Shown one piece after another: positions 4,137-34,815 of a stretch of 64,000 nucleotides of DNA. The notes below the pieces were generated by a model. It searched no databases. It was not told the origin of the DNA and saw only the letters and a program-made list of their open reading frames with translations. Positions within the stretch are counted from its first letter, which is position 1, and each line of letters opens with the position of its first letter. A program made the position numbers and the translations under genes. Origin of the DNA: Alphaproteobacteria bacterium (GTDB lineage: Bacteria > Pseudomonadota > Alphaproteobacteria > Micropepsales > Micropepsaceae); contig JACADY010000066.1 in assembly GCA_013389115.1 (NCBI GenBank), positions 17,775 to 81,774 of the forward strand. The letters run 5' to 3'.

Positions 4137-4138
4137 CG

Positions 4139-6092: not shown

Positions 6093-6096
6093 GGGA

Positions 6097-6875: not shown

Positions 6876-6877
6876 GC

Positions 6878-7623: not shown

Positions 7624-7646
7624 ATCCTTGCTCCCTTGTCCTTAGA

Positions 7647-8060: not shown

Positions 8061-8356
8061 GGCAGTTTCCCTTCAAGGCTTTGGCGCAGCGCGGCGGCAA
8101 GCGTGTCGCGGATCGCGCCTTCCTGTGCCGCCAGCACGGCTTCGACCGCGCCCAGATGGGCGCTCATCGAAGCGGGGAGCGAAAGCGTGAGGCCTTCTTC
8201 TTCCTCTTCGAGGGTGAGGTGCGCGGCCAGACCACGGCCCAGCGATGCGGCAAGACCCTCGCGCAGGCGCAAGGCGATGCCGGGCCAGGCCCTGGCTACG
8301 GCGCGCTTGCAGGCTTCCTCAACGGCGCGCAGCGCGGGATCGGCCGGCGCCCTCAT
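8057..8356 (-). CDS. Hypothetical 99-aa protein inserted between the g7-like and g8-like genes
   Basis: ORF joined by ATGA overlaps at both ends (8353-8356 and 8057-8060). Ala/Leu/Glu-rich. No family recognised by eye. Confidence 0.55.
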   Translation of the reverse strand: MRAPADPALRAVEEACKRAVARAWPGIALRLREGLAASLGRGLAAHLTLEEEEEGLTLSLPASMSAHLGAVEAVLAAQEGAIRDTLAAALRQSLEGKLP

Positions 8357-8673
8357 GAGGGCTCGCCCTGCATGGCGGTGATGCGCTGATAGCCGCTTTG
8401 CGGCACATCCTCGCGCACGGCCAGGATCGCGAAGATCCGCTCGCCAAGGCGAAGGCGATGGGCGGGCGTCACCTCCGCCTCGATGCGCATGGTGATCTCA
8501 TAGCGGGTGCGCGGCTCGCGCCCCTCGCCGGAGGAGACTTCCTCTCCGCCGAGCGCGTCGATCTCGGCCCAGAAGGTTGCGACCGGCATCCAGGTTTCGA
8601 TGACGCCGCCGCCTTCGTCCGCGACGCTCTCCTTGCTCTCGATCGTCACGCGGTGGCGCATGGGGCCGATCAT
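8353..8673 (-). CDS. Head closure / head-tail adaptor (SPP1 gp16-like), RcGTA g7-like
   Basis: 106 aa, MRHRVTIESKESVADEGGGVIETWMPVATFWAEI... matches the head-tail adaptor family. Confidence 0.85.
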   Translation of the reverse strand: MIGPMRHRVTIESKESVADEGGGVIETWMPVATFWAEIDALGGEEVSSGEGREPRTRYEITMRIEAEVTPAHRLRLGERIFAILAVREDVPQSGYQRITAMQGEPS

Positions 8674-9239
8674 GCGAGACGCCTTGCGCGGAAAGGATCG
8701 ATGAGCGCGGCGATGGCTCTTCCGGTTTCGGCGCTGATGCCGCCCTCTCCACGGTTTTCGTAGAAGGCGGCGATGAGGAGCTGGATCGCCTGGCGCAGCG
8801 GCTCTGGCACATGCTGCGCCGTATCGCCATAGCCGGCGCTGAATTCAAGCCTCAAGCCAAGCGCGGGCCGCAACGCGGATGAGAGGTAAGGCTCTAAGAG
8901 CACGACGCGCCCCGGATCGGAGGCGGTATCGACCCAGAACTCGCCCAGCGCCATCGCGATCTCCGCGCCATCGGCACCGACATGGGTTGCGCTTAAAAGC
9001 GCGCGCAAGGGCGGGCGCGGCATGCGGATGGGCGCCTCCGGCCAGTGGTCGAGCGTCAGGCGCCAGGACTGTGTCATCAGCGCGCGGCCCGTCATCTCCT
9101 CAACCGTGCGGCGCGCGGCGGTGATGAGGCCGGCGATGAGCGCGTCATCGGCATCCGTCGCGACACGCAGGAAGGATTTCGCCTCTGCCAGCGTCAGTGG
9201 CTCTGCGGCAGGCGCCGTCAGCAATGCAAGCCCGCTCAT
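8670..9239 (-). CDS. Head-tail connector (phage gp6-like), RcGTA g6-like
   Basis: 189 aa, LTLAEAKSFLRVATDADDALIAGLITAARRTVEEMTGRAL... classic gp6-like DNA-packaging/connector motif. Confidence 0.85.
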   Translation of the reverse strand: MSGLALLTAPAAEPLTLAEAKSFLRVATDADDALIAGLITAARRTVEEMTGRALMTQSWRLTLDHWPEAPIRMPRPPLRALLSATHVGADGAEIAMALGEFWVDTASDPGRVVLLEPYLSSALRPALGLRLEFSAGYGDTAQHVPEPLRQAIQLLIAAFYENRGEGGISAETGRAIAALIDPFRARRLA

Positions 9240-9265
9240 GGGGTCTCAGTTATCCTTTCGTCCGT

Positions 9266-9306
9266 ACAAAGAAAAAGGGCGGAAGCGGTTCTTTCCGCCT
9301 CCGCCC
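9266..9306 (-). terminator. Intrinsic terminator between the capsid (g5-like) and g6-like genes
   Basis: On the minus strand GGGCGGAGGCGG-aaagaa-CCGCTTCCGCCC (12-bp stem, one mismatch) is followed directly by TTTTTCTTTG. It lies 23 nt after the capsid stop (9329) and 27 nt before the g6 start (9239). Confidence 0.7.
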
Positions 9307-9328
9307 TGCGCGGAAATCCTTTTAGCGG

Positions 9329-10648
9329 TCAGGCGCTGGCGAATTTCAGCAGCTTGAAGGCCTCGAAATTCTGCACGCCGCCGCCCACGCGCTTGGTCGT
9401 GTAGAAAAGGATGTATGGCTTGGCGGTGAAGGGGTCCCGCAGCACGCGCACGCCGACGCGATCGACAATGAGGTAGCCGCGCGCGAAATCGCCAAAGGCG
9501 ATGGCGTAAGCATCGGCCGCGATGTCGGGCATGTCCTCGGCCTCAACGACCGGATAGCCAAGGAGCGAGGCGGGCTGGCCAGCGGTCGCGCCGGGCTGCC
9601 AGATATAGTTGTCGCTGCCGTCCTTCATCTTGCGGATCACCGCCTCGACACTGCGGTTCATCAGCCAGCGCGCATTCTGGCGATAGGTCTGCTTTGGCGC
9701 ATAGACAAGGTCGAGCAGGCGGTCGACCGGATCCGTGGCGGCGAACGCGCCGGTGCCGCCGCTCAAGAGAAAGCCCGTCTTGCCCCAGGCGTAGGATGCA
9801 TCCGCGACCTTTTCATAGGAGAGAATGCCGCGCGGCTTCGCCGTGCCATCGCCGTTGATGAAGGCCGCGCCTTCCTGCGCGGCGAACTCGCATTGCACCT
9901 CGCTCGCCAGCCATTCCTCGATGTTGATGAAGGCGTCATCGAGCAGCGTCTGCGTCGCGGCCGGCATCGCGTAGAGCTCCATTGCGGGGAACTCGATCAT
10001 CTTCAGGCTCGATGCCGCCGTCTCGGTGCGCGCCGCCTCCTCGCCGACCCAGCCCGAGGTGAGTTCGCCAAGGCTCATCGGCTTGCGGAACGTGCCCGCG
10101 CCGATCTGGCGCACGCTCGCGATCGCGCGCATGGGCGAGACATCCTTCAAGATGCGGTCGATCGCCGCCTCTGTCTCCTGCGGCACGACATAGCCGCCAT
10201 CCTCGTTCGTGCCGGCCGCGAGGCTTTTCATCTCAAAGCCCGTCAGCTCATGCGCATCGCCCTTGCGCACATAACGCTCGAAGGCGGCCTTGTGCTCGCG
10301 CGCCAAGGGGCCTTCCTTGCGCAGGCGGTTGATGCCGAGGGCATGCGTCTCTGGCCCCGGCAGAGGCGGGCGGCGCAGGCTCAGCGACAATTCATCGAGG
10401 CGCGACTTCTGATCGGACAGCGCCTTGTTGATGCGGTTCACCTTGTCCTCGGTGACGGCATCGGGGCTGAGCCGCTGCTCGATCTCGCCAAGGCGCTCGT
10501 CGTTTGCCGCCTTGAATTCCTCAAAGGATTGCAGGAACTGATCGAACGCGTCGAGCAGCTCACGCGAGGGGGGCGCCGCGTTCTCGCCAAGCGCCTTGTT
10601 CTCCAGCGGGTCCAAAGGCCCGCCTCGTACGTCCAAGTCCATATCCAT
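9329..10648 (-). CDS. HK97-family major capsid protein, RcGTA g5-like
   Basis: Start set at ATG 10648 (MDMDLDVRGGPLDPLENK...) behind a GGAGGG Shine-Dalgarno. N-terminal coiled delta-like region, then the HK97 fold region. The longer track ORF runs through the protease gene. Confidence 0.9.
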   Translation of the reverse strand: MDMDLDVRGGPLDPLENKALGENAAPPSRELLDAFDQFLQSFEEFKAANDERLGEIEQRLSPDAVTEDKVNRINKALSDQKSRLDELSLSLRRPPLPGPETHALGINRLRKEGPLAREHKAAFERYVRKGDAHELTGFEMKSLAAGTNEDGGYVVPQETEAAIDRILKDVSPMRAIASVRQIGAGTFRKPMSLGELTSGWVGEEAARTETAASSLKMIEFPAMELYAMPAATQTLLDDAFINIEEWLASEVQCEFAAQEGAAFINGDGTAKPRGILSYEKVADASYAWGKTGFLLSGGTGAFAATDPVDRLLDLVYAPKQTYRQNARWLMNRSVEAVIRKMKDGSDNYIWQPGATAGQPASLLGYPVVEAEDMPDIAADAYAIAFGDFARGYLIVDRVGVRVLRDPFTAKPYILFYTTKRVGGGVQNFEAFKLLKFASA

Positions 10649-10683
10649 GACCCTCCAATTGGCTTTCACTGATCGCTTCTGTT

Positions 10684-11220
10684 TCACTGATCGCTGTTGG
10701 CCGTGTGAAGCGCAGGCGCGCCTTGGGCGCCCTTCACCCGCAGCACGCGCGCGCCAGGCAGCATCGGGAAGGTCACGACCGAGACTTCCCAAAGATCGAT
10801 TTCCAGTATCGTGCGCACGCCGGTTTGCTGATCCGTCTGTCCACGGACGGTCCTGAAGCCGATCGAGAGGCCGTCGATGGCGCCCGCGCGCATCAGGGCG
10901 AGGACGTCGCGCCCCCTTGCGCTGTCGAGCACCAAGCGGCCGCGCACGTAAAGGCCTCTCGCATCCTCGATGATGCGCTCCCACACGCCGATCGGCTCAT
11001 GCGCCAGGTGCTGATAGAGCATCTTGATGCCGGCGGGCGGACGGCGCAGCAAAGTGCGACGGAAGGCGCCCGGCGCGACGCGGTCATGGGTCTGATCAAC
11101 GATGCCGAACAGTGAGGCATAACCCTCGAACAACCCTTGCGCACTCAATTGCTTGAAGGTGAAAGCCATGTCGCGGCTTTCCCGCCCGCGCCTGCTGACG
11201 CGAGTGACGTTCAGTCCCAT
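10684..11220 (-). CDS. HK97-family prohead protease, RcGTA g4-like
   Basis: 178 aa, FEGYASLFGIVDQTHDRVAPGAF...GLSIGF... typical of the prohead serine protease. GGAG lies 5 nt upstream of ATG 11220. Confidence 0.85.
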   Translation of the reverse strand: MGLNVTRVSRRGRESRDMAFTFKQLSAQGLFEGYASLFGIVDQTHDRVAPGAFRRTLLRRPPAGIKMLYQHLAHEPIGVWERIIEDARGLYVRGRLVLDSARGRDVLALMRAGAIDGLSIGFRTVRGQTDQQTGVRTILEIDLWEVSVVTFPMLPGARVLRVKGAQGAPALHTANSDQ

Positions 11221-11348
11221 TGTCTCTCCTCTACTTTTTGGCCGCGCCAGCGCATTTCCCGATCACGTGAAATGGGGGAATGCTCGCTGACCTTTGCAGC
11301 ATCGCGCCTCTTTTCGGCGAACCGGCCCCACTTCGCCGAGAAGCGCAT
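11211..11348 (-). CDS. Small basic ORF (45 aa) at the position of RcGTA g3.5
   Basis: Not in the track because it is under 60 aa. ATG 11348 directly follows the portal stop (TAG 11349-11351). Product is MRFSAKWGRFAEKRRDAAKVSEHSPISRDREMRWRGQKVEERQWD. Its TGA overlaps the protease start (ATGGGACTGA). Confidence 0.4.
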   Translation of the reverse strand: MRFSAKWGRFAEKRRDAAKVSEHSPISRDREMRWRGQKVEERQWD

Positions 11349-12578
11349 CTAGTCGTGCACGCGGGCGCCTTGCGGCAGGCGGCCATAGCCCACAGCCGCG
11401 CGTTTCTCATCGAGGGTGAGGAAGCTGGCGCCGTTCACGCGCTGCCACAGGGATTCGCGCTCAAGCGAGAGCGCCTCGATGCCGTCGAGATCAAGACCAA
11501 GGCGCACGCCCGGCCCATAGAGCGGCCCCAGGAAATTGCCGATCGCCTCGGCGGTCTTGGCCGCGACCGGCAGAACGGTATGGCGCCAGAAGGCGAGGTT
11601 CGCCTCGCGGTAGTTCGCGTAGGTCGCATCGCCGGGGATGCCGAGGAGCTGGGGCGGCACGCCAAAGGCAAGCGCAATCTCGCGCGCCGCGACGTGCTTT
11701 GCCTCGATGAAGTCCATCTCGGCCGGCGACAGGCTCATCGGCTTCCAATCGAGCCCGCCTTCGAGCAGCAAGGGGCGACCGGCGTTGCGGGGACCCTGAT
11801 AATGCTCGGCCAATTCCTCCTTGAGCCTTGCGAACTGGTCGCTGGAGAGCTGGCCTTCGCCATTGCCGCCGCCATAGATGAGCGCGCCGCTCGGCCTTGC
11901 GGCATTGTCGAGCAGCGCCTTATTCCAGGCGCCGCCCGCATTGTGGATGTCGATGGCAAAGGCGGCCGCTTCGAGCGGGCTTTGCCCATAATAGTCACTG
12001 AGCGGATTGAAGAGCGCGACATGGAGGACAGGCATGAAGCCCGTCGCGCCGTCGCGCTCGAAGCGCACGCTTTGTCCGCCTGCCTCGTATTCATAGGCAT
12101 CGGGCCAGCCGCGCGGACCTGGAACGATGCGCATACGGTCGGGGCGCAGCACGTAAAGCTCGCGCGGGGCGCCTTCGAGCGTGACGGCTTCGAGATAGGC
12201 GTTGCCGGCGGTCTGCAGATAGCCGTACCAGGCTTCGAGCAGCGTCGCGCCGCCCGCAACCGGGTTTGGCGCGCGCAAGAGGGTCTCCAGCGGATGGCCC
12301 GGCGCTTCGCTCGCGCCCACATAGACGATGAAGGGCACCGAGGCGGCAGCCTCCGCGATCATGCGGATGCAGCGATAGGCGATCGGATTGCGAGCCATCC
12401 CTTCCCGCGCCAGCGACGCATAATCGCGCGGCGTCCAGATCGGGCGCCCCGTTGCGTGACAGGCAATGAGGGGGCCGGCGCGGCTTGCCTTCGTTTCGGG
12501 CGGGGCGGCGGTGGGCTTGCGCCACAGCCTGCCGATCGCGCCCTTCCAAAAGGGAAGGCGCGTTTCCTTCTCAGCCAT
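11349..12578 (-). CDS. Phage portal protein (HK97 family), RcGTA g3-like
   Basis: Start set at ATG 12578 (MAEKETRLPFWKGAIGRLW...). The upstream part of track ORF 11349-12929 translates REP repeats and is not credible. Confidence 0.9.
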   Translation of the reverse strand: MAEKETRLPFWKGAIGRLWRKPTAAPPETKASRAGPLIACHATGRPIWTPRDYASLAREGMARNPIAYRCIRMIAEAAASVPFIVYVGASEAPGHPLETLLRAPNPVAGGATLLEAWYGYLQTAGNAYLEAVTLEGAPRELYVLRPDRMRIVPGPRGWPDAYEYEAGGQSVRFERDGATGFMPVLHVALFNPLSDYYGQSPLEAAAFAIDIHNAGGAWNKALLDNAARPSGALIYGGGNGEGQLSSDQFARLKEELAEHYQGPRNAGRPLLLEGGLDWKPMSLSPAEMDFIEAKHVAAREIALAFGVPPQLLGIPGDATYANYREANLAFWRHTVLPVAAKTAEAIGNFLGPLYGPGVRLGLDLDGIEALSLERESLWQRVNGASFLTLDEKRAAVGYGRLPQGARVHD

Positions 12579-12619
12579 CGATTGGGGTTCCTTCTCTTTC
12601 TTCTGGAACGGAGTGCGTG

Positions 12620-12807
12620 GGTTCGTGAAGGGTGAGGCCTTCTGCTCCCTCCCCTTGCAAAGGGGAGGGCAAGGGATGGGGATCGCATTCTTGGTAGGAG
12701 CCTGCCCCCCTCCCGCGCCTCCCCCTTTCAGGGGGAGGAGAAAATGAGGGTGCCGCCTCACTCTTCGAGGGCCGCGAAGCGCGGCCACCTCTGGGTGAGG
12801 ATTTTTT
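12620..12807. repeat. Block of GC-rich REP-like hairpin repeats in the TerL-portal spacer
   Basis: Hairpins CCCTCCCCTT-gca-AAGGGGAGGG (12647-12669) and CCTCCCCC-tttca-GGGGGAGG (12718-12738). Also the about 45-nt element CCTCACTCTTCGAGGGCCGCGAAGCGCGGCCACCTCTGGGTGAGG (12756-12800) followed by ATTTTTT. 12701-12751 is about 90% identical to 17991-18040. Confidence 0.8.
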
Positions 12808-12808
12808 C

Positions 12809-14152
12809 TTAGAGGCGGCGCAGGCGCGGGGTGATCGTCGGCGCGGACAAATCGCTCAGCGCCCAGACCAGCGCATCGAGGCGGTCGGGGCTTTCTTGCG
12901 CCTCTCCCTCCCCGCTCACGGCCGCACACATCTGATCCTCAAGCAAGGCGAGCGATCCCACATGGGAGACGCGGCCCTGCTCATAGAGTGCGGCAATTGG
13001 CTCGGCCCGCGCGATCTTGCCGCGTGAGGCCCGCACCGATGTCACGGGTACCGATGGATCGACCTGGCGCAGCACGCTTTCCACCATCTCGCCACCCTGG
13101 TTCACCTCGATCACGATGCGGTCGGCGGCGAACATGCGGAATGTCTCGATCGTCCGCGCCGCCCATTTCTGCGGGCTGAGACCACCGGCCGAGCGGTCGG
13201 CCAGCACATAATAGCGCCCGTCCTCGCCCTTGCCGGCGGCGATGATCCCCGTTTCGCTTGCCTCCTCGCCCGAGCTTGCGGGTGGATCAACGCCGATGAC
13301 GATACGGGTGAGCGGCGGGTTATCGCGCACGCGCGCGGCATCGAGCATGGCCCTTGTCCACAGCGCGCCTGGCGTATCCTCCAGGAGATCGCCGTCGATC
13401 TCCTGGCGGGCAAGCCTCGTGCCACGATAGCGCTCCTTGACCCACGCAAGGAAGGATGGCGACAGGTTCGCCCTGTTCGCCATCGTACCGGCGCGCGTGA
13501 CGACCGTGCCTGGCGCCTCCAACAGGTTCTTCAGTGCACGGATGTTTCGCGGCGTCGTCGTGATGACGGCGCGCGGCCGCTCACCCAGACGCAGGCCCAG
13601 TTGCAGCATGTCGAAGGCCTCCTGGGGATAGCGCCACTTGGCGAACTCATCCGCCCAGGCATAGTCGAATTGCGGCCCGCGCAGGCTGTCGGGCTCCTCG
13701 GCCGAGAAGAGCTGCGCCACCGCGCCATTCCGCCAGAGAAGGCGCCGCCGCGAGACCTCGAATTCCGGCCGCTCGCCGCCATCGATCCGCAAGAGGCCGG
13801 AGACGCCCTCGACCATCACCTCGCGGGCATCCGCCTGCGTCGCGGCGATGAGCGCGATGCGGGCCGCCTTGCCCTCGCGCACCACCTTTGCGACCGCCTC
13901 GGCACCGGCGCGCGTCTTGCCCGCGCCGCGCCCGCCCATGAACACCCAGAGGCGCCAGTCGCCCCTCGGCGCGCGCTGTTCGGGCCTTGCCCAGAAATCC
14001 CAATCAGCGAGAAGGGCCGCCGCCTCGGCCTCGCTCAGGCTTGCGAGGAACGCGCTTTTGACGCTTGCCGGCTTCAAGATCAGCGAGGCGGCGCTCAAGC
14101 GCGAGGCGCGCGGTGGCTTGCGTTTCAACGTCCTTGGGTTCTTGCCGTTCAT
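12809..14152 (-). CDS. Terminase large subunit, RcGTA g2-like
   Basis: 447 aa with Walker A GGRGAGKT and the conserved N-terminal LSEAEAAALLADWDFWARPEQ. High GC3 from ATG 14152. Confidence 0.9.
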   Translation of the reverse strand: MNGKNPRTLKRKPPRASRLSAASLILKPASVKSAFLASLSEAEAAALLADWDFWARPEQRAPRGDWRLWVFMGGRGAGKTRAGAEAVAKVVREGKAARIALIAATQADAREVMVEGVSGLLRIDGGERPEFEVSRRRLLWRNGAVAQLFSAEEPDSLRGPQFDYAWADEFAKWRYPQEAFDMLQLGLRLGERPRAVITTTPRNIRALKNLLEAPGTVVTRAGTMANRANLSPSFLAWVKERYRGTRLARQEIDGDLLEDTPGALWTRAMLDAARVRDNPPLTRIVIGVDPPASSGEEASETGIIAAGKGEDGRYYVLADRSAGGLSPQKWAARTIETFRMFAADRIVIEVNQGGEMVESVLRQVDPSVPVTSVRASRGKIARAEPIAALYEQGRVSHVGSLALLEDQMCAAVSGEGEAQESPDRLDALVWALSDLSAPTITPRLRRL

Positions 14153-14378
14153 GTTCCGCCGTCAGCTTGCTCAGGCGCTCAAGTGTGGCGGTGAGGACGG
14201 CGAGCGTCTTTCCATCGCGCTCGCGGTCGGCCGCCGATCGGTCGGGCGCCTTCATGTTCTTTTCAACTTCCTTGATCTGACGGCCAAGGATGCGGCCAAT
14301 GCGCGATGCCATCTTCGCGTACTCCCAAACGCTTTTGCCGGCCGGTGCCTTGCGCGCCGCCGTTCTAAACCTGGTCAC
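14004..14378 (-). CDS. Candidate small terminase / RcGTA g1-like protein
   Basis: First ORF of the cluster. GTG 14378, or ATG 14312 (MASRIGRILGRQIKEVEKNM...) with GGGAG upstream. Charged, coiled-coil-like. Its 3' end overlaps TerL by up to 149 nt in another frame. Confidence 0.5.
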   Translation of the reverse strand: MTRFRTAARKAPAGKSVWEYAKMASRIGRILGRQIKEVEKNMKAPDRSAADRERDGKTLAVLTATLERLSKLTAEHERQEPKDVETQATARLALERRLADLEAGKRQKRVPRKPERGRGGGPSR

Positions 14379-14529: not shown

Positions 14530-16575
14530 TTGTGGCCCAAAAGCCTTATCCACCGCACAATGCGGCAAAGCGAAAAAGAGCGAGGGTTCATGGGGATGGC
14601 TGCCATGAGGTTCAACGGCTGGGCGAAGCTGGCGCTGCGCGCCATGATGGTCGGCGCGGGCGGTACGCTTGCGGCGGGCATTGCCGCGTTTTTCGGGCTT
14701 TACCTCTATTTCACCTGGCGGCTCGATCCGGCCATCGATCTTGCCGCGCTTAACCGCTCGCCCAGCATCACCTTCACCGATGAAGAGGGCCATGTGATCG
14801 CCTCGCGCGGGCCGGCGTTCGGCACCTATCTGCCGCTCGATCAGATCCCGGCCTATCTCAAGGGCGCGTTCCTTTCGGCGGAGGACCGGCGCTTCTACGC
14901 GCATTGGGGGATCGACCCGAAGGGGCTTGCCCGCGCCATGATGGCCAATTGGTCGCGCGGGCAGATGGTCCAGGGCGGCAGCACGATCACGCAGCAGCTC
15001 GCGCGCTCGCTGTTCCTCAGCAATGAGCGCTCGCTCGAGCGCAAGCTTGAGGAGATGTTCATCGCCTTCTGGCTCGAATGGCATTTCAGCAAGGACAAGC
15101 TGCTTGAGACCTATCTCAACCGCATCTATCTGGGCGGCGGCGCCTATGGCGTCGATGCGGCGGCGCGGCGCTATTTCGGCGTGACGGCGCGGGAGACGAC
15201 ACTTGCCCAGGCGGTGATGCTGGCCGCGATGACGCGGGCGCCGGCGCGGTTCGCGCCGACGAGCGATCTTGAGGGCGCGCGCACAAGGGCGGCGCTGGTG
15301 CTCGATGGCATGGTCTTGGAAGGCATGCTGACGCAAGGCGAGGCCTTTGCCGCGCGGGCGGTCCCGGCGGGGCCAGGCTCCGACATCGCGCATGCAAGCT
15401 TCAACTATTTCGCGGATGCGGCGAGCGATGCGCTCACGGCGCTCAACCTGCCGGTGTCGCAAGGCGATCTCGTCGTGCGCACGACGCTCAACCGCGATCT
15501 GCAGCGCACGGCGCAGGAAATCCTCACCCAGACGCTTACCGAGCGGGGCGATGAGAAGTCCGCCGGCCAGGGCGCCATCGTCGTCATGGACAAGGAAGGC
15601 GCGGTGCGCGCGCTGATCGGCGGGCGGGACTATCTCGACAGCCCCTTCAACCGCGCCACACAGGCCAGGCGCCAGCCGGGATCCGCCTTCAAGGCCTTTG
15701 TCTATCTCGCCGCCTTCGAGCGCGGGCTTGATCCCTATACGATCCGCTATGACGAGCCCGTCGATATCGGCGGCTGGCGGCCGCAGAATTTCTCGAACGG
15801 CTATTCGGGACCGGTCACGCTCGATGAGGCCTTCGCCAAGTCCATCAACACGGTCGCGGCGCAACTGGGCGAAGAGGTCGGACAGCACAACGTCGTTGCG
15901 ACGGCGCAGCGGCTTGGCATCACCTCGGCGCTTGAAGGCAATCGCTCGATCGCGCTGGGGACGTCGGAGGTCACGCTCATCGATCTGACGCAGGCCTATG
16001 CGCCCCTCGCCGCGGGCGGGATGCGGGTGCAGGCGCATATGATCCTCGATGTGCGCAAAAGCGATGGCACAGTGCTCTATGCCTATGAGCCGCCGCCAGC
16101 GGAGCGCATCGTCGCGACGCGCGTCGTCAACGAGATGAATTTCCTCATGGCTGATGTGGTGCGGCACGGCACCGGCAAAGGCGCGGCCCTTGGCGGGCGG
16201 GATGTGGGCGGCAAGACCGGCACGACGCAGGAGCACCGCGATGCCTGGTTCATCGGCTATACGGCCGACTATGTCGCCGGGGTGTGGATCGGCAATGACG
16301 ACAACGCGCCGATGGACAAGGTCGTGGGCGGGCAAATGCCGGCGCAGATCTTCGCCAAGGTGATGACGGCGGCGCATGAGGGCATGCCGCTCGCCGCGCT
16401 GCCAGGCAGCAATTCCTATGATGCGCCCGTCGCGGCCGACTATGGCCGGGAGCGGTGGGGCGATCCTTATGCCGAGACGCAGCGGGAGGATGGCCCCATG
16501 CCTTACGACTATCCCCCGCCGCGGCGCGAGGAGGATCTTGGCGATGCCATCATCGATTTCCTCTTCGGCGACTAA
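14530..16575 (+). CDS. Class A penicillin-binding protein (PBP1A family; transglycosylase + transpeptidase)
   Basis: GT51 motifs EDRRFYAHWGIDPKG and GGSTITQQLAR. Transpeptidase motifs SAFK, SNG, KTGTT. Start uncertain (GTG 14530 or downstream ATGs). Confidence 0.9.
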   Translation: MWPKSLIHRTMRQSEKERGFMGMAAMRFNGWAKLALRAMMVGAGGTLAAGIAAFFGLYLYFTWRLDPAIDLAALNRSPSITFTDEEGHVIASRGPAFGTYLPLDQIPAYLKGAFLSAEDRRFYAHWGIDPKGLARAMMANWSRGQMVQGGSTITQQLARSLFLSNERSLERKLEEMFIAFWLEWHFSKDKLLETYLNRIYLGGGAYGVDAAARRYFGVTARETTLAQAVMLAAMTRAPARFAPTSDLEGARTRAALVLDGMVLEGMLTQGEAFAARAVPAGPGSDIAHASFNYFADAASDALTALNLPVSQGDLVVRTTLNRDLQRTAQEILTQTLTERGDEKSAGQGAIVVMDKEGAVRALIGGRDYLDSPFNRATQARRQPGSAFKAFVYLAAFERGLDPYTIRYDEPVDIGGWRPQNFSNGYSGPVTLDEAFAKSINTVAAQLGEEVGQHNVVATAQRLGITSALEGNRSIALGTSEVTLIDLTQAYAPLAAGGMRVQAHMILDVRKSDGTVLYAYEPPPAERIVATRVVNEMNFLMADVVRHGTGKGAALGGRDVGGKTGTTQEHRDAWFIGYTADYVAGVWIGNDDNAPMDKVVGGQMPAQIFAKVMTAAHEGMPLAALPGSNSYDAPVAADYGRERWGDPYAETQREDGPMPYDYPPPRREEDLGDAIIDFLFGD

Positions 16576-25940: not shown

Positions 25941-27656
<1,716 letters not shown>

Positions 27657-27831: not shown

Positions 27832-28839
27832 ATGACGTTCACCGGACGGTTCCTTGCCCTGGGCCTTACCCTTTGCGCGGCCAGCCTTGGCGCCTGCGAA
27901 ACGATGAGCCTGGGGTCCGAGGCGCCCGCGCCCATGCCCGCCGTCGCCGCAGCTTCCGTTCCCGCCGCACCGCCGCCGGTGTTCGATGCGGCGCTCGCGG
28001 CCGAAGTGGCCAGCGTCACGCCCATTCCCTCGCCGCGCCGGCGGGCGAAAAATGCACCCTCGCCCTCCAGCCAGCCGGAAGCCGCGATCCCCTCCTCCAG
28101 CAAGGGCTCGCTGGCGCGCTATGCCGCCTATCAGAAGACGGCGGGCGAGCTGACGCGGCAATCCTATCCCTCGGCGAAGAGCCTCAATGCGGCGACCGGA
28201 AAACTGAACGGCTTCAAGCCGGAGGAGCTTGCGGAAGGCTGGATGCTGCGCAACGCCGCCGCGGCGGCGGGCGTCGCGACCTTCAGGGACGGCGTCAAGC
28301 AGGCGGCGGAGGCCGAGGGCCGCGAGGCCTTTCTGCAATCGATCGCTCGCAACCCGGAGCGCCTGCGCACGCTGCCGGGCGGCGAAGACGCGGTCAAGGC
28401 TGTCTATACGGCGATCCGGGTCGATGTGACGGCCTTACGCGAGATGGGCGCGACGTTCCGCCAGACCTGGCTGCGCATGCAGCGCAAGGCAAGCCTTGAG
28501 ATCTCCCGCCCCGTTTCGGCCGTTTGCGGCTCTGGCGCGCTCGCCATTGGCGGCTCGGTTCTTCCCTTCGAGGTCGGGCCGCAGCAAAAGGCCGCGCTCA
28601 TCGACCGCACGCTGGCGCTCGCGGCGGGGAGCGTGCTTGGCGCAAGCGAGGGGCCGCAGGCGCGTTTCGCGCGCGATGCCACGGTGTCGCAGTGCGTGCG
28701 CTTTGCCCGCCTCAACCTGCGCCAATGCCTTGCCGCCAAGCACGGCGCCGCAGAAGCTGCGTTCTGCCTTGACCGGCATGGTGCGGAGGAAATGGCAGGC
28801 TGCCTCGAATGGGTGCTGCCGGGTGTGAAGACGCCCTAA
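27832..28839 (+). CDS. Hypothetical lipoprotein
   Basis: Lipobox LGAC after a signal peptide (MTFTGRFLALGLTLCAASLGAC), then a Pro/Ala-rich linker. No family recognised. Confidence 0.6.
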   Translation: MTFTGRFLALGLTLCAASLGACETMSLGSEAPAPMPAVAAASVPAAPPPVFDAALAAEVASVTPIPSPRRRAKNAPSPSSQPEAAIPSSSKGSLARYAAYQKTAGELTRQSYPSAKSLNAATGKLNGFKPEELAEGWMLRNAAAAAGVATFRDGVKQAAEAEGREAFLQSIARNPERLRTLPGGEDAVKAVYTAIRVDVTALREMGATFRQTWLRMQRKASLEISRPVSAVCGSGALAIGGSVLPFEVGPQQKAALIDRTLALAAGSVLGASEGPQARFARDATVSQCVRFARLNLRQCLAAKHGAAEAAFCLDRHGAEEMAGCLEWVLPGVKTP

Positions 28840-28892: not shown

Positions 28893-28920
28893 CTCCCCAC
28901 GAATAGGGGAGCGGTTTTTT
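28893..28920 (+). terminator. Possible intrinsic terminator after the lipoprotein gene
   Basis: CTCCCC-acgaata-GGGGAG, then CGG and TTTTTT. Short 6-bp stem, embedded in a REP-like repeat block (28861-29040). Confidence 0.4.
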
Positions 28921-29149
28921 ATGGCAACCACCTCCCCTCAGGGGAGGTCGACGCGCCCTTTAAGCGCTTCGGGAGGGGTCTTCTCGCGAAGCACGGATGG
29001 CCCGGTCCTTTGCTTTCGCGGGGATGCCGGGCGATGACGGTTGGGGGCCTCCCACCCATTAACCTTCAATCAATGCAAGTTTAGATATTGTTTTCACGCG
29101 ACCTCAAAGGGGGACGCGTAGGGTCGCACCGTTCCAGTGAGAGAGCGGC

Positions 29150-29479
29150 GTGATGTTCACCTTCTTGTTGCGTTCTGCGTTCTGGCTTTTCATCGTCGTG
29201 CTGCTGCTCCCTAAGGATCAGCGGCCGATCGCGCTGACGGGCCTGCAAATCCCGGAGACGCTCGGCGATCCGCGCCTCTTGATCGCGCAGCAAAAGCCGA
29301 TCCTGGTGCCGCCCGACAGCTTCTGCGACCGGAATTTCGATCTGTGCCTTTCCACCCTCACGGCCGTCGATGACAGCGTCGCGCTCGGCGTTGATGCCCT
29401 CGAGCAATTGGGAAGCGAGATCAAGAAGAACGATCTGCCCGAGCGGGCGGTGCAACTCGTCCGCCCACGGAGTGAATAG
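29150..29479 (+). CDS. Small membrane-anchored protein (DUF5330-like, tentative)
   Basis: 109 aa with N-terminal hydrophobic segment FTFLLRSAFWLFIVVLLLP. Family assignment is from memory only. Confidence 0.5.
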   Translation: MMFTFLLRSAFWLFIVVLLLPKDQRPIALTGLQIPETLGDPRLLIAQQKPILVPPDSFCDRNFDLCLSTLTAVDDSVALGVDALEQLGSEIKKNDLPERAVQLVRPRSE

Positions 29480-29481
29480 GC

Positions 29482-30279
29482 CTAATTCTCGTTCTTATCC
29501 TCTTCCTCTTCTTCGGCGCGCCAGGCGGTAAGCCCGGGCCTTCCCGTTCCAGATACCATGCCATAGTGCCGCGCGAGACGGTCGAGCGCGATCTGCAGCA
29601 CGACCTTGCCAGAGCGCTGCGGCCAACCAAGCCCACCTTCCGCCATTTCCAGGCCCTTGAGATGGCAACACACGGCCATGACGATGTCGCCAAGGCCCGG
29701 GCCTAGCGCCGCCATCGCCTTTTCGACCCGCCGGCGCGCGGCAAGGGCGATGAGCGGCAGCTCGGCGCGCGCGGGGCCTCTTGGACCTGCGGTCACGGGC
29801 ATGCCCCAATCGGCGGTGACACGCTGGGCGAGCGCCGCCTTCGTGAAATCCTCGCGCAGCCGCTCGCCCGCCGCGAAGGCAAGCTCGTCGATCATGGGCC
29901 GGCCATCGGGCCCTTTGCGCCGGCGCAGCCAGGCGAGCGGGGATTCGGCGGTGTTCACCTGCACTTTCCTTTGCACGCCATCGGGCGCGAGGATCTCGCG
30001 CTCCTCGATGTTTGCCTGCGCATCGGGAGCAGTGAGGCGCTCAAGATGGGCGCGGCCCTCACGCGTCAGGCGGCAGGCGCCGTCCTCACCCTTGCCGACC
30101 CAGCCGCGCGCCAGGGCGAAGGCAAGCACGGCGGGCGCCACATGCGTCGTTTCGGCATGTCCGGCGACCGCGATCACGGCCTCGCCCTCTGCCTCCCGCA
30201 CCAAGGCGCCGGGCAGAGAGAGGCGGCGCAGCAAATGGCGCAACTGACGGGCATGGGTTTCGGCGGCGGCGCGGCTCAT
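29482..30279 (-). CDS. DUF6456-like protein; candidate GafZ / GafA C-terminal-half homologue
   Basis: 265 aa. ATGA overlap with the upstream DnaA-IV-like gene. C-terminal HTH-like segment GWPQRSGKVVLQIALDRLARHYG and an acidic tail. The functional call is an inference. Confidence 0.55.
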   Translation of the reverse strand: MSRAAAETHARQLRHLLRRLSLPGALVREAEGEAVIAVAGHAETTHVAPAVLAFALARGWVGKGEDGACRLTREGRAHLERLTAPDAQANIEEREILAPDGVQRKVQVNTAESPLAWLRRRKGPDGRPMIDELAFAAGERLREDFTKAALAQRVTADWGMPVTAGPRGPARAELPLIALAARRRVEKAMAALGPGLGDIVMAVCCHLKGLEMAEGGLGWPQRSGKVVLQIALDRLARHYGMVSGTGRPGLTAWRAEEEEEDKNEN

Positions 30280-30620
30280 GTGCGGGCCAGCGCCGTAATG
30301 CCGGTGACGACGCGGGCGGCAGCCTCGATGCAGGCGATCGCCTCGTCAAAGTCGGGATCCTCGCGCGCGTCCTCGACCAGATGGCAGGCATGGGTGACGG
30401 TGGTGCGATCGCGCCTGAAGGCCTGTGCGACCTTGCTCAACGACAGGCCGAAGCCGACATGGGCGATGTACATGCCCACCTGGCGGGCAAAGGCGACGGT
30501 CGCGCCGCGCCGCGTATCGGCCCGCATCTCCTCGATGGGGACATCGAAGGCGGTGGCGGCAAGCCGCAGCGCCAGGTCGGCGCGGCGGGCTTCGGGGGAA
30601 ACGTGCAGATCAGTGGACAT
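30276..30620 (-). CDS. DnaA domain IV-only HTH protein; candidate GafY / GafA N-terminal-half homologue
   Basis: 114 aa. RRGATVAFARQVGMYIAHVGFGLSLSKVAQAFRRDRTTVTHACHLVED aligns by eye with E. coli DnaA domain IV ([39 protein letters not shown]). No AAA+ module. Confidence 0.65.
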   Translation of the reverse strand: MSTDLHVSPEARRADLALRLAATAFDVPIEEMRADTRRGATVAFARQVGMYIAHVGFGLSLSKVAQAFRRDRTTVTHACHLVEDAREDPDFDEAIACIEAAARVVTGITALART

Positions 30621-30670
30621 CGATACACCTCTTTACGAGATGCGTTAGTTTTCCATCGATCTTGTGCACA

Positions 30671-30679
30671 TGAGGATAA
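30671..30679 (-). promoter_or_regulatory. DnaA-box-like 9-mer (TTATCCTCA, 8/9 to TTATCCACA)
   Basis: Plus strand reads TGAGGATAA. It lies 51-59 nt upstream of the DnaA-IV-like gene in the divergent intergenic region. Single copy. Confidence 0.25.
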
Positions 30680-30760
30680 CTTTCCTATTATCACCCCCGC
30701 GCGGCTGAGTCGGAAAACCGGACGCGCCCGGCCAGGACCCCGCAATTTCTCGAGGAAACC

Positions 30761-31330
30761 ATGCGCAATCGAATCCGTTTTCACCGGCGCCAGCGCGGCA
30801 TGACGCTCAAGGAACTCGCGGAGCGAACGGGGACAACCCCGCAGACCATTTCGCGGCTCGAGACGGAGGTCATGACCGTGTCGGTTGATTGGCTGGAGCG
30901 GCTGGGCGAGGCGCTCGGCGTCCACCCCTCGATGCTGATCGAGGGACCGGAGGCGCCGCCCATCACCTTTGCGGGCAATGTGCTCGAAGGCGGGCTGGTG
31001 CGGCGCGGGCCGCGCGAGAGCGAGGAATTCGCCTTCGCGCTGCCGCAGGCGCCCTCGCTTGCGGTCAAGATGACGGAGACGGCGGGACCTTATCTGGCCG
31101 GGGAGACGCTTGTCTGTATACGGATTACCGGCGAGGGGCTTGGCGCGGCACTCGGGCATGACTGCCTTGTCGGGCTCGCCGATGGCCGGGCGATGCTGGC
31201 GCGGGTCATCAAGGGCAACAAGGAGAGTTTTACGCTAGTCCCGCTCAATTCAGGCGGGGGGGTGCTTTATCATCAGCGCCTGCGCTGGGCGGCGAAGGTG
31301 GCCATGCGGCTTCGCTCGGTAGCAGCGTAG
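30761..31330 (+). CDS. XRE-family HTH regulator with C-terminal S24 (LexA/CI)-like domain
   Basis: N-terminal HTH MTLKELAERTGTTPQTISRLE. The C-terminus aligns with lambda CI (GHDCLVGLADGRAMLARVIKGNKESFTLVPLN vs [31 protein letters not shown]). SD GAGG lies upstream of ATG 30761. Confidence 0.8.
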   Translation: MRNRIRFHRRQRGMTLKELAERTGTTPQTISRLETEVMTVSVDWLERLGEALGVHPSMLIEGPEAPPITFAGNVLEGGLVRRGPRESEEFAFALPQAPSLAVKMTETAGPYLAGETLVCIRITGEGLGAALGHDCLVGLADGRAMLARVIKGNKESFTLVPLNSGGGVLYHQRLRWAAKVAMRLRSVAA

Positions 31331-31477: not shown

Positions 31478-31888
31478 TTAGCGGCGCGAGGGTTTCGCCT
31501 TCTGGCCGAGGCCCATCTTCTTTGCGAGCGCAGAGCGGGCCTTCGAATAATTCGGGGCCACCATCGGATAGTCGGCGCCAAGCCCCCAGCGGCGGCGATA
31601 GTCGTCGGGGGTGAGGCCATAGCGGCTTTGCAGGTGACGCTTCAGCGAACGGAACTTCATCCCATCCTCAAGACAGATGATGAAGTCCGGCGTCACAGAT
31701 TTCTTCGGGTTAATGGCGGGCTTCAGCGGCTCTTCAGGTTGAACCACGACATCGCGGGTGAGTTCATTGAGGGTATTGTGAATCTCTGAAATGAGACCTG
31801 GAATGTCGGACGGGCGCAGCATGTTGTTGCCAACATAGGCGGCCACGATCTCAACCGTCAGATCCATCAGATCGTTCTGCTTTTCCAT
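31478..31888 (-). CDS. mucR: MucR/Ros family zinc-finger transcriptional regulator
   Basis: MEKQNDLMDLTVEIVAAYVGNN...PDFIICLEDGMKFRSLKRHLQSRYGLTPDDYRRRWGL...YPMVAPNYS is a near-canonical Ros/MucR sequence. Start set at ATG 31888; the track uses TTG 31897. Confidence 0.92.
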   Translation of the reverse strand: MEKQNDLMDLTVEIVAAYVGNNMLRPSDIPGLISEIHNTLNELTRDVVVQPEEPLKPAINPKKSVTPDFIICLEDGMKFRSLKRHLQSRYGLTPDDYRRRWGLGADYPMVAPNYSKARSALAKKMGLGQKAKPSRR

Positions 31889-32076
31889 GACGCTCAAACT
31901 CTTTCGATCAATCAGAGGAAGATGGGCAAACTATTCGAGTGCTATAGAAACGCAATATGCTTGATATTCGGATAATGAAGAATGGGCCGCCGTTAACCGT
32001 GATCGACGGCTTTTTGTTGGCGATATTTGTGGCAACCGCCTCTTTTTTGTCGCCAGAGTAGCAGTTATCCGACTAC

Positions 32077-32769
32077 TCAACCATTCGTGCAGGGGCAACC
32101 GCCCAGGATGCTTTCATCCAGTTTGGAAAAGTAAGCATCAAGCGCCTCGCCGATGATCTCCTGACTCGGCCGGTGCAGCGCCGCTGCAGCCAGCTTGAGG
32201 CGGATATAGCGGCTGCGTTTCAGGCGCACAGAGACATGGAACTTGCGGGCATCGGCCGCATCGCCCGGACAATCTGTACAAGGAGCCGCGGACGCCTCGG
32301 GCGCGGCCTTTTGCATGGCGGGCGATATTGGCGCGGGCGACGCTGGCGTGGGTGCGGGCGAAGCCGGCACGGGCGCACGATCACCCGCGAGCGGCACTTC
32401 TTCGATGGGTGCCGATGGCAATGGCATTTCCCCTGGCGCGGGCGCTTCCTCTTTTACGCCAAGTTCTTCCTCGATGCGCATGCCAGCAGCCTTGGCGATC
32501 CGATCACGGATCATCGTGAGGCGTTCGCTCAACGGGCCTGCAGCGGGCGCTGGCTCTGGCCTATTCGGCGCGGGCTTTGCCGTCTGTGGCCCGCGCTGTG
32601 CCTGCGCGCCTGCGACGATGGCGGGGGTGCGCGTCAGCGCATAGGCGCGCGGCGCCAGATCATCGGCGAGGGCCACCGTCGCCGCGGGATGGGCTTCGCC
32701 CTTTCGCGCAAGCAGTCCGGCAGTGAGAGCGGCAAATTTCGGCTTCGAACTCGATGCATCATCCGTCAT
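32077..32769 (-). CDS. Hypothetical protein with Pro/Ala-rich middle and C-terminal ribbon-helix-helix-like motif; partner of the ParA-like ATPase
   Basis: ATG 32769 overlaps the ParA-like stop (ATGA). C-terminus is KFHVSVRLKRSRYIRLKLAAAALHRPSQEIIGEALDAYF (beta strand then helices, RHH-like). Confidence 0.6.
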   Translation of the reverse strand: MTDDASSSKPKFAALTAGLLARKGEAHPAATVALADDLAPRAYALTRTPAIVAGAQAQRGPQTAKPAPNRPEPAPAAGPLSERLTMIRDRIAKAAGMRIEEELGVKEEAPAPGEMPLPSAPIEEVPLAGDRAPVPASPAPTPASPAPISPAMQKAAPEASAAPCTDCPGDAADARKFHVSVRLKRSRYIRLKLAAAALHRPSQEIIGEALDAYFSKLDESILGGCPCTNG

Positions 32770-33509
32770 GTAAACGCCCGACGACCAAACACGGGCGCAG
32801 AGCGCCCCAACGCATTGACATTCCTCTGCCCCTGCCCGCGCGCCGCATCGTCCATCCACGTCCCTTGCGGCGTATCAAGGCGCGCGATGCGCGAGGCCAG
32901 ATAGTCCCAGAGCTGTGCAATCTCGAGCGCGGATTTGCCGGCCGGATCGACCTCCATCACCGTGCGGCCGTCGATCATCGAGGCCGCGAAATCGAGACGG
33001 TTGTGGACGGTGACGGGTGCGACGGTGCCGTGCTGCGATAAGGCGATCGCGGCCTCCATCGTGATCTTGGCGCGCGCGGTCGCGGCGTTGACGACGAAGA
33101 CGAGCTGCTTCTTGCGCGATTCAACGATATCGACCGTGGGGCCGACAGCACGCAGATCATGCGGGCTTGGCCTTGTCGGCACGACGATCAGATCGCCGAA
33201 GCTCACCACCTCGGCAATCGCCTTGGTGACGGCGGGCGGCGTATCGATCACCACAAGGCGGATGCCTTGCGTGCGCGCCATGTCGAGGTCGTGAAAGAGA
33301 TTGGTGAAGGCGGACTGGATGAAGAAGGGCGATTCAGAGGCGCGCACATTCCACCACTTCGCCAGGCTGCCTTGCGGATCGGTGTCGATGAGGGCCACGG
33401 GACCGGCCCCCGCGCGATCGGCCTGCACCGCGACATGGCCGGCAAGGGTCGTCTTGCCCGAGCCGCCCTTCTGCGAAGCGAAAACGACGACGCGCATCTG
33501 TGGCGACAT
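32766..33509 (-). CDS. ParA/MinD-family P-loop ATPase
   Basis: Deviant Walker A SQKGGSGKTT, DTDPQGS, VVIDTPP. Confidence 0.85.
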   Translation of the reverse strand: MSPQMRVVVFASQKGGSGKTTLAGHVAVQADRAGAGPVALIDTDPQGSLAKWWNVRASESPFFIQSAFTNLFHDLDMARTQGIRLVVIDTPPAVTKAIAEVVSFGDLIVVPTRPSPHDLRAVGPTVDIVESRKKQLVFVVNAATARAKITMEAAIALSQHGTVAPVTVHNRLDFAASMIDGRTVMEVDPAGKSALEIAQLWDYLASRIARLDTPQGTWMDDAARGQGQRNVNALGRSAPVFGRRAFT

Positions 33510-33607
33510 GGCCCTTCAACCTTCCCTTTGGCATGAGACGGGAAGCAGGCAGCCTCCACGCCACGCATTGAGCGTACCGAAAACGGCTTTAATGGCGGGT
33601 AAAAGCG

Positions 33608-34675
33608 TTAAGCCGCCTGCGGGCGCGACTGCCTGTCCCAATACTGAACGGTCAATTGCGCCTGGTCGCGGCCAATCAGGTCATAGACATGGGCGACATG
33701 CTCAAGATGGCCAGTCGGCCTTGCCCGGCCAAAGCGCTTATAGTCGGTCAAGAGCACGAGCGAAGTGAACTCGGTACGGTTGGCGCCGATGGCGCGGGCC
33801 GCGATGGCCAAGGCTTCGCCGCCCGAGTCCTGCAGGATCTTTTTGGCCGTCGCGCGGGTCGTCTGCAGCAGGGCGGAGAAATTCTGCATGAACACGGACA
33901 TTTCGCCAGCGCGCAGGGACTTTAATAGTTCGTTTACGGAAGATCCGCGGGGTGGCGGCAGGCGCCGGCGATGCGCCGCTTCATCGGCCGCGATGGAGCC
34001 CAAGGTTTCGTCGAGCAGCTTCTCCGTCATGGGAAAGCGCTCAAGAATGTTGCGGCGCAAGGCGGCGGACACCCACCAGAACATCGCCTGGGCCGCCTCG
34101 CCCGGCAGATCCTCACGCAGCAGCAACGGGCGGCGCAAGGCCTCATTGCCCTCGCTGCGCGCGGCGAGCACGGCAAGGACGGCGGCGCCGGGATGGGCGG
34201 ACAGATTCTGAACGAGCGCAAGGTCTACCGATGGCTCCTGCGCCTCGATGAGCGCACTGCAAACGGTGGCCGGAATGTTGCGGCGCGCGGCAATCGTCTC
34301 ACGGTGCGCGGTTTCGCCCGCGCGAATGACCGCAATCAGATCCTCCTCGCGCAGGGCCTCGCTGTTCAAGAGCAAGGGGCGCGCAACCTCAATGTCATCG
34401 CAGGCGAGATGGCGCAATAGACCTTCGGGAACATCCTTCCTGCCGGCCATGCGCGCGGCAAGTTCGGCCCGGATCTTCGTTTCCACCTCGCTCACCAGCG
34501 TGAGCAAAATTTCATCGAGCAGATGCTTGACGGTAGGCGCCAATTGACCGGCAGGCCCAAGCGCGAGCTCGCCCATCTGCGTGAACAGATCCTGGCGCGC
34601 GCCGGCATTCCTTTGGCGCGCGAGGCGCTGCAAAGCCGCCAGTTCAGCCTCATCGAGCTTCAATGCCGCGGACAT
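33608..34675 (-). CDS. DUF2336 domain protein (paralog 2)
   Basis: Start set at ATG 34675 behind GAGGAGAGG. ...DDIEVARPLLLNSEALREEDLIAVI... parallels paralog 1. Confidence 0.7.
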   Translation of the reverse strand: MSAALKLDEAELAALQRLARQRNAGARQDLFTQMGELALGPAGQLAPTVKHLLDEILLTLVSEVETKIRAELAARMAGRKDVPEGLLRHLACDDIEVARPLLLNSEALREEDLIAVIRAGETAHRETIAARRNIPATVCSALIEAQEPSVDLALVQNLSAHPGAAVLAVLAARSEGNEALRRPLLLREDLPGEAAQAMFWWVSAALRRNILERFPMTEKLLDETLGSIAADEAAHRRRLPPPRGSSVNELLKSLRAGEMSVFMQNFSALLQTTRATAKKILQDSGGEALAIAARAIGANRTEFTSLVLLTDYKRFGRARPTGHLEHVAHVYDLIGRDQAQLTVQYWDRQSRPQAA

Positions 34676-34815
34676 GCCTCTCCTCGCCTTCAGCGACAAA
34701 TTCGCATGCGGGCCGCGCCCTTCGCGATTACACCAGTGTCATCCGCATATGGCTGCCGCTGTGGCGACAACTATGCTAGGGTAAAGTTTAAAGAAAACTT
34801 TCAGCGAGTAGACCC

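Follow-up and report, generated by a model that had tools for sequence, protein, structure and literature searches.

Gene content of the locus

The stretch analysed here, hereafter called the window, comprises 64 kb of contig JACADY010000066.1 from an alphaproteobacterial metagenome-assembled genome (MAG). Its subject is a compact control locus formed by two minus-strand genes, here termed gafY and gafZ, and by a divergently oriented gene for an XRE-family regulator, located about 15 kb from a cluster of RcGTA-type gene transfer agent (GTA) genes (Table 1). A first-pass annotation of the same DNA had proposed that the two genes are the local equivalent of the GTA activator pair GafY/GafZ, that the XRE gene encodes a previously undescribed, genetically linked repressor of this pair, and that the arrangement represents a phage-style switch layout retained for the GTA.

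The genes themselves are laid out as described there. The two open reading frames (ORFs) of 114 and 265 aa are present, and the stop codon of gafY and the start codon of gafZ are joined by an ATGA overlap at 30276-30279. The spacer to the divergent XRE gene measures exactly 140 bp and mucR/ros follows beyond that gene. With 54% GC, the control region lies below the 64.5% of the window, and its gafY-proximal 80 bp contain 45% GC. The minus-strand cluster is indeed of the GTA type: Pfam domains within it comprise GTA_TIM (5e-148), Phage-tail_3, Rcc01698_C, BR0599, tape measure and tail tube, and also connector, capsid, S78 prohead protease, portal and TerL.

Table 1. Features of the gafYZ locus and related sites, in positions of the window. 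HTH, helix-turn-helix; RBS, ribosome-binding site.
Feature	Position	Strand	Description
gafZ, 265 aa	29482-30279	-	DUF6456 protein; counterpart of the central and C-terminal GafA regions
gafY, 114 aa	30276-30620	-	DnaA-domain-IV-like HTH protein; counterpart of the N-terminal GafA region
divergent control region gafY/XRE, 140 bp	30621-30760		
gafY RBS GAGGTGT	30625-30631		
palindrome TTTACGAGATGCGTTAG	30632-30648		10/12 match to TTTACG-N5-CGTAAA; candidate operator of the XRE-family protein
inverted repeat GGATAACTTTCC	30674-30685		GGAA-N4-TTCC with one mismatch; GGAAAGTTATCC on the gafY strand
XRE-family regulator, 189 aa	30761-31330	+	HTH_3 and predicted cI/LexA-like beta-domain; candidate linked gafYZ repressor
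mucR/ros	31478-31897	-	Pfam ROS_MUCR 8.7e-48; conserved syntenic neighbour
RcGTA-type head-tail cluster	171-14378	-	presumed target of GafYZ
DnaA-box-like GGTGGATAAGG	14544-14554	-	weak evidence, possibly chance

The gafY-gafZ pair as a split GafA

Judged by homology, the two genes are the GTA activator gene gafA in split form. The 114-aa protein, which had been compared by eye with DnaA domain IV, matches Pfam Bac_DnaA_C over residues 21-80 (2.5e-14) and the PDB structures of DnaA domain IV with values from 3e-8 (3pvp) to 2e-5; a PRK06030-type match in NCBIfam (4e-22) stays under the cutoff. The 265-aa protein is of the DUF6456 type, as the first-pass annotation had proposed (Pfam 2.5e-50, residues 107-240). 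Using the R. capsulatus GafA sequence of Table S2B in Sherlock & Fogg (2022, PMC9638019), BLASTP aligned the 114-aa protein with GafA residues 20-65 (30% identity, E 0.004) and the 265-aa protein with residues 113-379 (41% identity, E 1e-45), both in support of the proposed equivalence with GafY/GafZ. The domains are collinear, the shorter protein representing the N-terminal HTH. As the first-pass annotation had noted for the 114-aa protein, neither product contains an AAA+ domain, and the public names of GafZ homologues, 'ATPase' in this MAG and 'DNA replication initiation ATPase (modular protein)' in Filomicrobium, are therefore misleading.

A whole-protein Foldseek search of the PDB with the AlphaFold2 (AF2) model of the 265-aa protein (predicted local distance difference test, pLDDT, 78) yielded nothing significant, and the GafZ sequence itself found no match in the PDB. 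If the C-terminal helices were compared locally, sigma region 4 was retrieved, namely the -35-binding domains of SigD/SigL (3vfz_A with a target-normalised TM-score, TMt, of 0.87; 3vep_D, 0.78; 3hug_K, 0.70). The probabilities of these matches are 0.97-0.98, with E values of only 0.3-0.8 because the domain is short.

The assignment is routine annotation and not new, since the split form was published in 2022: a split gafA with an upstream "mucR or HTH" regulator has been published for Hyphomicrobiales (PMC9638019), and 494 adjacent GafY-GafZ pairs are known across alphaproteobacteria, together with the co-occurrence of gafYZ and GTA clusters across taxa (Gozzi 2022, PMC9632790). In Caulobacter, GafY activates transcription with integration host factor (IHF), and GafZ acts as antiterminator with NusA, NusG and NusE (PMC11150451). 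In our metagenomic loci gafY lies upstream of gafZ in 51 of 63 cases. With the split gafA of Hyphomicrobiales (Fogg 2019; Sherlock & Fogg 2022, PMC9638019) the window shares the two-gene form and the mucR and HTH genes upstream, whereas the sufE gene usually found downstream, and present at 35/57 gafZ loci, is absent from the window. With C. crescentus GafY/GafZ (PMC9632790, PMC11150451), compared by description, it shares a two-gene operon in which the gene for the DnaA-IV protein precedes that for the DUF6456 protein, GGAA-N4-TTCC-type repeats in the promoter, and an RcGTA-type cluster elsewhere on the chromosome as presumed target.

The divergent XRE-family regulator

The 189-aa protein carries an XRE-type HTH (Pfam HTH_3, 2.4e-11). 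It had been called S24-like as well, a label that is borne out by the predicted structure but not by Pfam, where Peptidase_S24 did not match at E<=0.1; a PDB sequence search matched the HTH alone. The AF2 model, built on the family alignment A1, reached a pLDDT of 87 and displays five N-terminal helices followed by a beta-domain. Its top Foldseek matches are the full-length lambda repressor (3bdn, E 5e-6), a lambda-186 hybrid repressor (7jvt) and DNA-bound LexA (3jso), along with the C-terminal domain of cI (2ho0 and 8gmu, TMt 0.55-0.58). According to the model, the architecture is an N-terminal HTH with a C-terminal cI/LexA-like beta-barrel domain.

In contrast to lambda cI and LexA, the protein has no Ser-Lys dyad. 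This holds for the family: among 120 members, no column of the C-terminal domain contains Ser in more than 37% or Lys in more than 11%. Invariant residues are G72, G109, G132, G142, R148 and W176, and the residue in front of G72 is Ala in the window protein only and I, L, V or M in the other members. Thus the family possesses neither the dyad nor a conserved Ala-Gly/Cys-Gly cleavage site, and the absence of the dyad excludes RecA-stimulated self-cleavage.

A word-indexed search retrieved at least 1,465 family members. An exhaustive profile search (E<=1e-30) gave 117 clusters at 50% identity, a few of which are multi-HTH artefacts, which puts the family at about 100 such clusters. Named members stem from Pyruvatibacter, Candidatus Phaeomarinobacter (Parvibaculaceae) and Neomegalonema, and the cultured marine carriers include, for example, Pyruvatibacter mobilis.

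Linkage of the XRE gene to gafZ was examined from both sides. Ten family members encoded on long contigs, with 36-51% identity to the window protein, were inspected, and in nine cases the neighbouring divergent gene encodes a DUF6456 protein. Six of these nine loci have a called Bac_DnaA_C gene between XRE and gafZ, and a GafY hidden Markov model (HMM) finds one in a seventh (L177; such handles denote our loci). For the reverse sample, 80 metagenomic loci were anchored on gafZ, of which 46 extend at least 1 kb upstream. All seven XRE genes found there are divergent from gafZ, with a gap of 187-249 bp between HMM-aligned ends. MucR is encoded upstream in the same orientation in 18 of the 33 gafZ loci with at least 2.5 kb of flank; the synteny of mucR and gafA was noted before (PMC9638019).

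Cis-elements upstream of gafY

The palindrome TTTACGAGATGCGTTAG abuts the RBS of gafY and covers positions 12-28 nt before the ATG. It is the sole match to TTTACG-N5-CGTAAA in 64 kb at up to two mismatches, a count to be read with 35 of 100 shuffles that also contain at least one match. At 10/12 or better, the pattern is found in 9/14 XRE-gaf spacers (shuffle mean 0.12, maximum 2) and in 0/38 gafY upstream regions without an XRE neighbour. Half-sites and proteins vary together: family members with the recognition helix TTAATIS pair with TTTGCG...GCAA(A/T) half-sites (L082, L178), those with IPTTPQTIG with T(T/G)TACC...GG(T/A)AAA half-sites (L050, L179). In L008, L012 and L013 the palindrome directly follows a conserved TTATCCCCG, a position that we read as the -35/-10 spacer.

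The spacer of the window also contains an element known from Caulobacter. There, gafYZ is repressed by RogA (CCNA_00080), which consists of an HTH and an S24-like domain without catalytic residues and whose operator, the inverted repeat GGAA-N4-TTCC, is part of the gafYZ core promoter (PMC9632790). With at most one mismatch, such repeats occur in 19/49 non-redundant gafY promoters (shuffle mean 3.9, maximum 9); GGAA/TTCC at spacings of N2, N3, N5, N6 or N7 stays within the shuffle range. Loci without an XRE gene have them in 16 of 38 cases and loci with an XRE gene in 3 of 11, the window being among these three. Its copy, GGATAACTTTCC, overlaps a DnaA-box-like GGATAAC.

In 49 non-redundant gafY upstream regions (L008-L095), the most enriched k-mer is the DnaA-box-like CGGGGATAA(G/C), or TTATCCCCG on the gafY strand, copies of which are located in the window at 30672-30680 and at 14544-14554. 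GGATAA is present in 34/49 of the regions versus 4.7 expected and CGGGGATA in 20/49 versus 0.4 expected, and this type of enrichment is independent of the XRE gene. At several loci TTATCCCCG stands exactly 19 nt before a -10-like hexamer TAnAGT, and the typical promoter without an XRE gene reads TTATCCCCG-N19-TAnAGT-gtGATAGGAcattaTTCCTATCa-RBS. GafY might bind the element for autoregulation, at a site that overlaps the -35; alternatively, the element may be a genuine DnaA site or half of a RogA site. Uncultured alphaproteobacteria widely conserve RogA-type operators and TTATCCCCG in front of gafY, which extends the Caulobacter model and provides candidate sites for the recognition sequence of GafY.

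The second copy, GGTGGATAAGG, precedes the first GTA ORF by about 165 bp if the listed GTG (14378) is its start; counted from a downstream ATG read by eye, the distance is about 230 bp. We do not claim GGATAA as a general GafY box of GTA promoters, an idea that was rejected because the hexamer shows no conservation at other GTA clusters: only about 6 of 37 non-redundant TerL-anchored 5' regions contain it on either strand. Across the window, GGATAAS occurs 11 times versus 5.4 expected, a number reached by 3 of 100 shuffles. Further GGATAAC copies are found at 32064-32070(-), about 170 bp upstream of the mucR start, and at 9249-9255(-), in the spacer that separates the capsid gene from the next GTA gene.

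A candidate linked repressor of gafYZ

Production of GTAs is fatal to the cell. How gafA or gafYZ are kept off, and how they are released, is therefore the central question of GTA regulation. To our knowledge, RogA in Caulobacter is the only dedicated repressor of a GTA activator that has been characterised.

For the window we propose, with a probability of roughly 0.6, that the gafYZ pair is the GTA master activator and that a dimer of the XRE-family protein most likely binds the palindrome and keeps gafYZ, and with it the GTA, off. By homology to Caulobacter, GafY, with its DnaA-domain-IV HTH, would activate the GTA promoters, and GafZ, loaded onto RNA polymerase, would serve as antiterminator over the 14-kb RcGTA-type cluster. 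A dimer on the palindrome, between the gafY promoter elements and the RBS, would hold gafYZ off and thereby the lethal GTA programme, a role that RogA plays in trans in Caulobacter. Induction would proceed other than by RecA-stimulated self-cleavage, given the missing catalytic dyad. Since a RogA-type repeat is present in the same promoter, an unlinked RogA may act there as well. Binding of the palindrome by the XRE protein, and repression as the sign of regulation, are what we infer from these data.

The proposal of a linked repressor is plausible and backed by the dyad-free fold, by the linkage in nine of ten sampled family members and by the operator evidence. A synteny figure of 2022 already shows the gene, however, as an HTH neighbour without a name. 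Nor does the proposal introduce a new principle: because RogA has the same architecture of an HTH and a dead S24 domain, it is a variant of a known solution. With a linked target, a predicted operator and cultured carriers, the repression hypothesis is cheap to test.

Several points weigh against this proposal. An XRE-family gene is present at only 7/46 gafZ loci (about 15%) and is therefore not a general part of GTA control, and one family member (P0121/L014) is not located beside gafZ at all. The covariation of palindrome and recognition helix is as expected for a cognate operator, but it is confounded by phylogeny. A scan of the gafY/XRE spacer for sigma-70 promoters and terminators detected nothing, and operator positions relative to the transcription start are therefore guesses. 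At the 5' end of the GTA cluster, neither 150-bp tandem repeats resembling the terGTA of C. crescentus nor a terminator was found on the GTA strand. Furthermore, a cI-like protein can activate as well as repress, cI-type proteins being activators of PRM.

The last point opens the most serious alternative, namely that the XRE protein is linked to gafYZ without being its repressor. It could be an activator or anti-repressor, regulate only itself, or control an unrelated gene and be kept in place by synteny. Besides the precedent at PRM and the empty promoter scan, the member apart from gafZ would fit this view, and in Parvibaculaceae-like loci a PAS-HisKA kinase, sufE and mucR are syntenic, so that part of the XRE-gafZ linkage may be inherited gene order. 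However, the linkage persists with different flanks (Neomegalonema L010, L015, L179), the orientation is always divergent across a short spacer, and the window palindrome is on the gafY-proximal side, beside the RBS. Since GTA production is lethal, a tight repressor is to be expected, by analogy with RogA. We thus consider a non-repressing XRE protein unlikely. RogA itself suggests another alternative, in which the divergent regulator is the local RogA orthologue moved beside its target. For comparison, the true rogA was located via primer oKRG128 (Gozzi S3 Table), which matches Caulobacter vibrioides DSM 9893 exactly; the adjoining ORF encodes 213 aa (MAT...IVWVSQ), as the length given in that paper and the primers require. 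Both proteins combine an HTH with a LexA/cI-like C-terminal domain without catalytic residues, both are tied to the gafYZ promoter (experimentally for RogA, by position for the XRE protein), a GGAA-N4-TTCC-like repeat is present in the spacer, and hhalign of the XRE-family profile against true RogA gives 87% probability (E 4e-6, 21% identity, 165 columns). In contrast, RogA matches Pfam Peptidase_S24 (1.2e-17), unlike the window protein, and BLASTP yields no significant alignment of the two (E 0.069 over 18 aa), for which reasons orthology was rejected. The HTH subtypes differ as well (HTH_3 versus Xre-like-HTH), the XRE-family palindrome TTTACG-N5-CGTAAA differs from the RogA operator, and RogA-type operators are mainly found in gafY promoters without an XRE neighbour. 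RogA is encoded about 1 Mb away from gafYZ in C. crescentus (CCNA_00080 versus CCNA_01111/2), whereas the regulator of the window is next door, and tblastn detected no true RogA elsewhere in the 64-kb window. By sequence, the XRE family and RogA appear to be at best remote homologues of the same design and not orthologues, which makes a relocated RogA quite improbable.

A third alternative would assign the pair to replication control, in an HdaB-like role as first proposed for the GafY homologue of Caulobacter, with the DnaA-box-like elements as true DnaA sites. In favour of it, GafY belongs to the DnaA domain IV type, HdaB was the first name of CCNA_01111 (cited in PMC9632790), the DnaA-box-like CGGGGATAA is the top enriched k-mer upstream of gafY, and some homologues are annotated at NCBI as 'DNA replication initiation ATPase'. 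Yet in the reinterpretation of Gozzi (2022) the HdaB phenotypes follow from GTA induction, the partner protein is the one with 41% identity to GafA, an experimentally proven GTA activator, the AAA+ domain is missing and an RcGTA cluster lies in the window. In addition, gafZ of L179 directly heads a terS-terL-portal operon. Thus we regard a replication role as very improbable, and all three alternatives were judged less likely than repression of gafYZ by its divergent neighbour.

Relation to other XRE repressors and to phage switches

Small XRE proteins that directly repress the gafYZ promoter have been described from Caulobacter and phage phiCbK, namely RtrA, RtrB, CdxA, CdxB and TgrL (PMC10688885). 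The window protein shares the XRE-family HTH with them. However, they lack a C-terminal domain and are unlinked to gafYZ, while the window protein has a predicted cI-like domain and is linked. The XRE family points to a second, sequence-distinct family with a dead-autopeptidase architecture, here beside its presumed target.

The geometry resembles the cI-cro switch insofar as the XRE gene is divergent from genes that launch particle production and a palindrome is placed in the short shared spacer. It differs in the partners, which are an activator/antiterminator pair and not Cro, and in the operator, as the window has one clear palindrome and not a tripartite operator. One might speculate that the XRE protein is a dedicated cI-like repressor, encoded in cis and non-cleavable, which, with gafZ and perhaps gafY, forms a relic of the prophage switch for immunity and late control in the GTA ancestor. 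The ancestral state would still be visible in loci such as L179 (1148-4573), where the XRE gene faces gafZ, a TerS-like gene, an RcGTA-type TerL and portal, contiguous and on the same strand from gafZ onwards. This locus has no gafY, and its TerL and portal are 52% and 55% identical to those of the window. L015 (413-5582) is similar, with TerL 3 kb away and again no gafY. Elsewhere, the switch would have been split from the structural genes, and the repressor replaced by RogA in trans or by a DUF6477 neighbour.

Such loci lend some support to the earlier idea of a phage-style switch, but they are rare. Among 80 TerL-anchored IMG/VR loci none has gafZ upstream of TerL, and gafZ directly upstream of TerL was rejected as a common arrangement. 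Neither the window nor 80 other TerL-anchored loci contain the TerS-like family of L179 and L015. We treat the relic switch as a tentative idea, clearly less probable than repression as such. If true, a phage lysogeny switch would have been retained and later rewired during GTA domestication, with convergence of several non-orthologous dead-S24 repressors on the same promoter.

Further genes of the neighbourhood

Beyond mucR (32077-34699(-)), a Pro/Ala-rich ORF of 260 aa without Pfam match, a ParA/MipZ-like ATPase (32766-33509) and a DUF2336 protein (33608-34699) are encoded, with no evident relation to gafYZ. On the other side, the region 28900-29481 takes the place of sufE and contains the overlapping ORFs 29150-29479(+), encoding 109 aa with a hydrophobic N-terminus, and 29081-29455(-); neither of them has a Pfam match, and the same applies to a 335-aa ORF at 27832-28839(+).

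A PAS-HisKA-HATPase histidine kinase, its domains read from the translation, is encoded a few kb beyond gafZ at 25941-27656(-). A PAS_7-HisKA-HATPase_c kinase (precomputed Pfam) is found at the equivalent position in L008 (320-1984), L012 (1-823) and L013 (250-1914), and in Parvibaculaceae-like loci the kinase is accompanied by PPK2, DUF5330 and sufE. This synteny may reflect a sensory input or simple gene order.

Where gafY has no XRE neighbour, other genes stand upstream. At some loci mucR is directly adjacent. In L021 (3474-4019(+)) and five loci like it, mucR and gafY are separated by a gene for a PAS_5-domain protein (1.6e-18). Most frequently, in about 20 of 39 gafY loci without an XRE neighbour, the place of the XRE gene is taken by a divergent DUF6477 gene (about 100-190 aa) that lies 77-540 bp upstream of gafY. 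These genes form clusters of 12 and 8 among the 39 loci, with examples in L019 (4111-4491(-)), L058 (1707-2072(-)) and about 18 further gafZ loci among L016-L095. The DUF6477 protein may be another gafYZ-associated factor.

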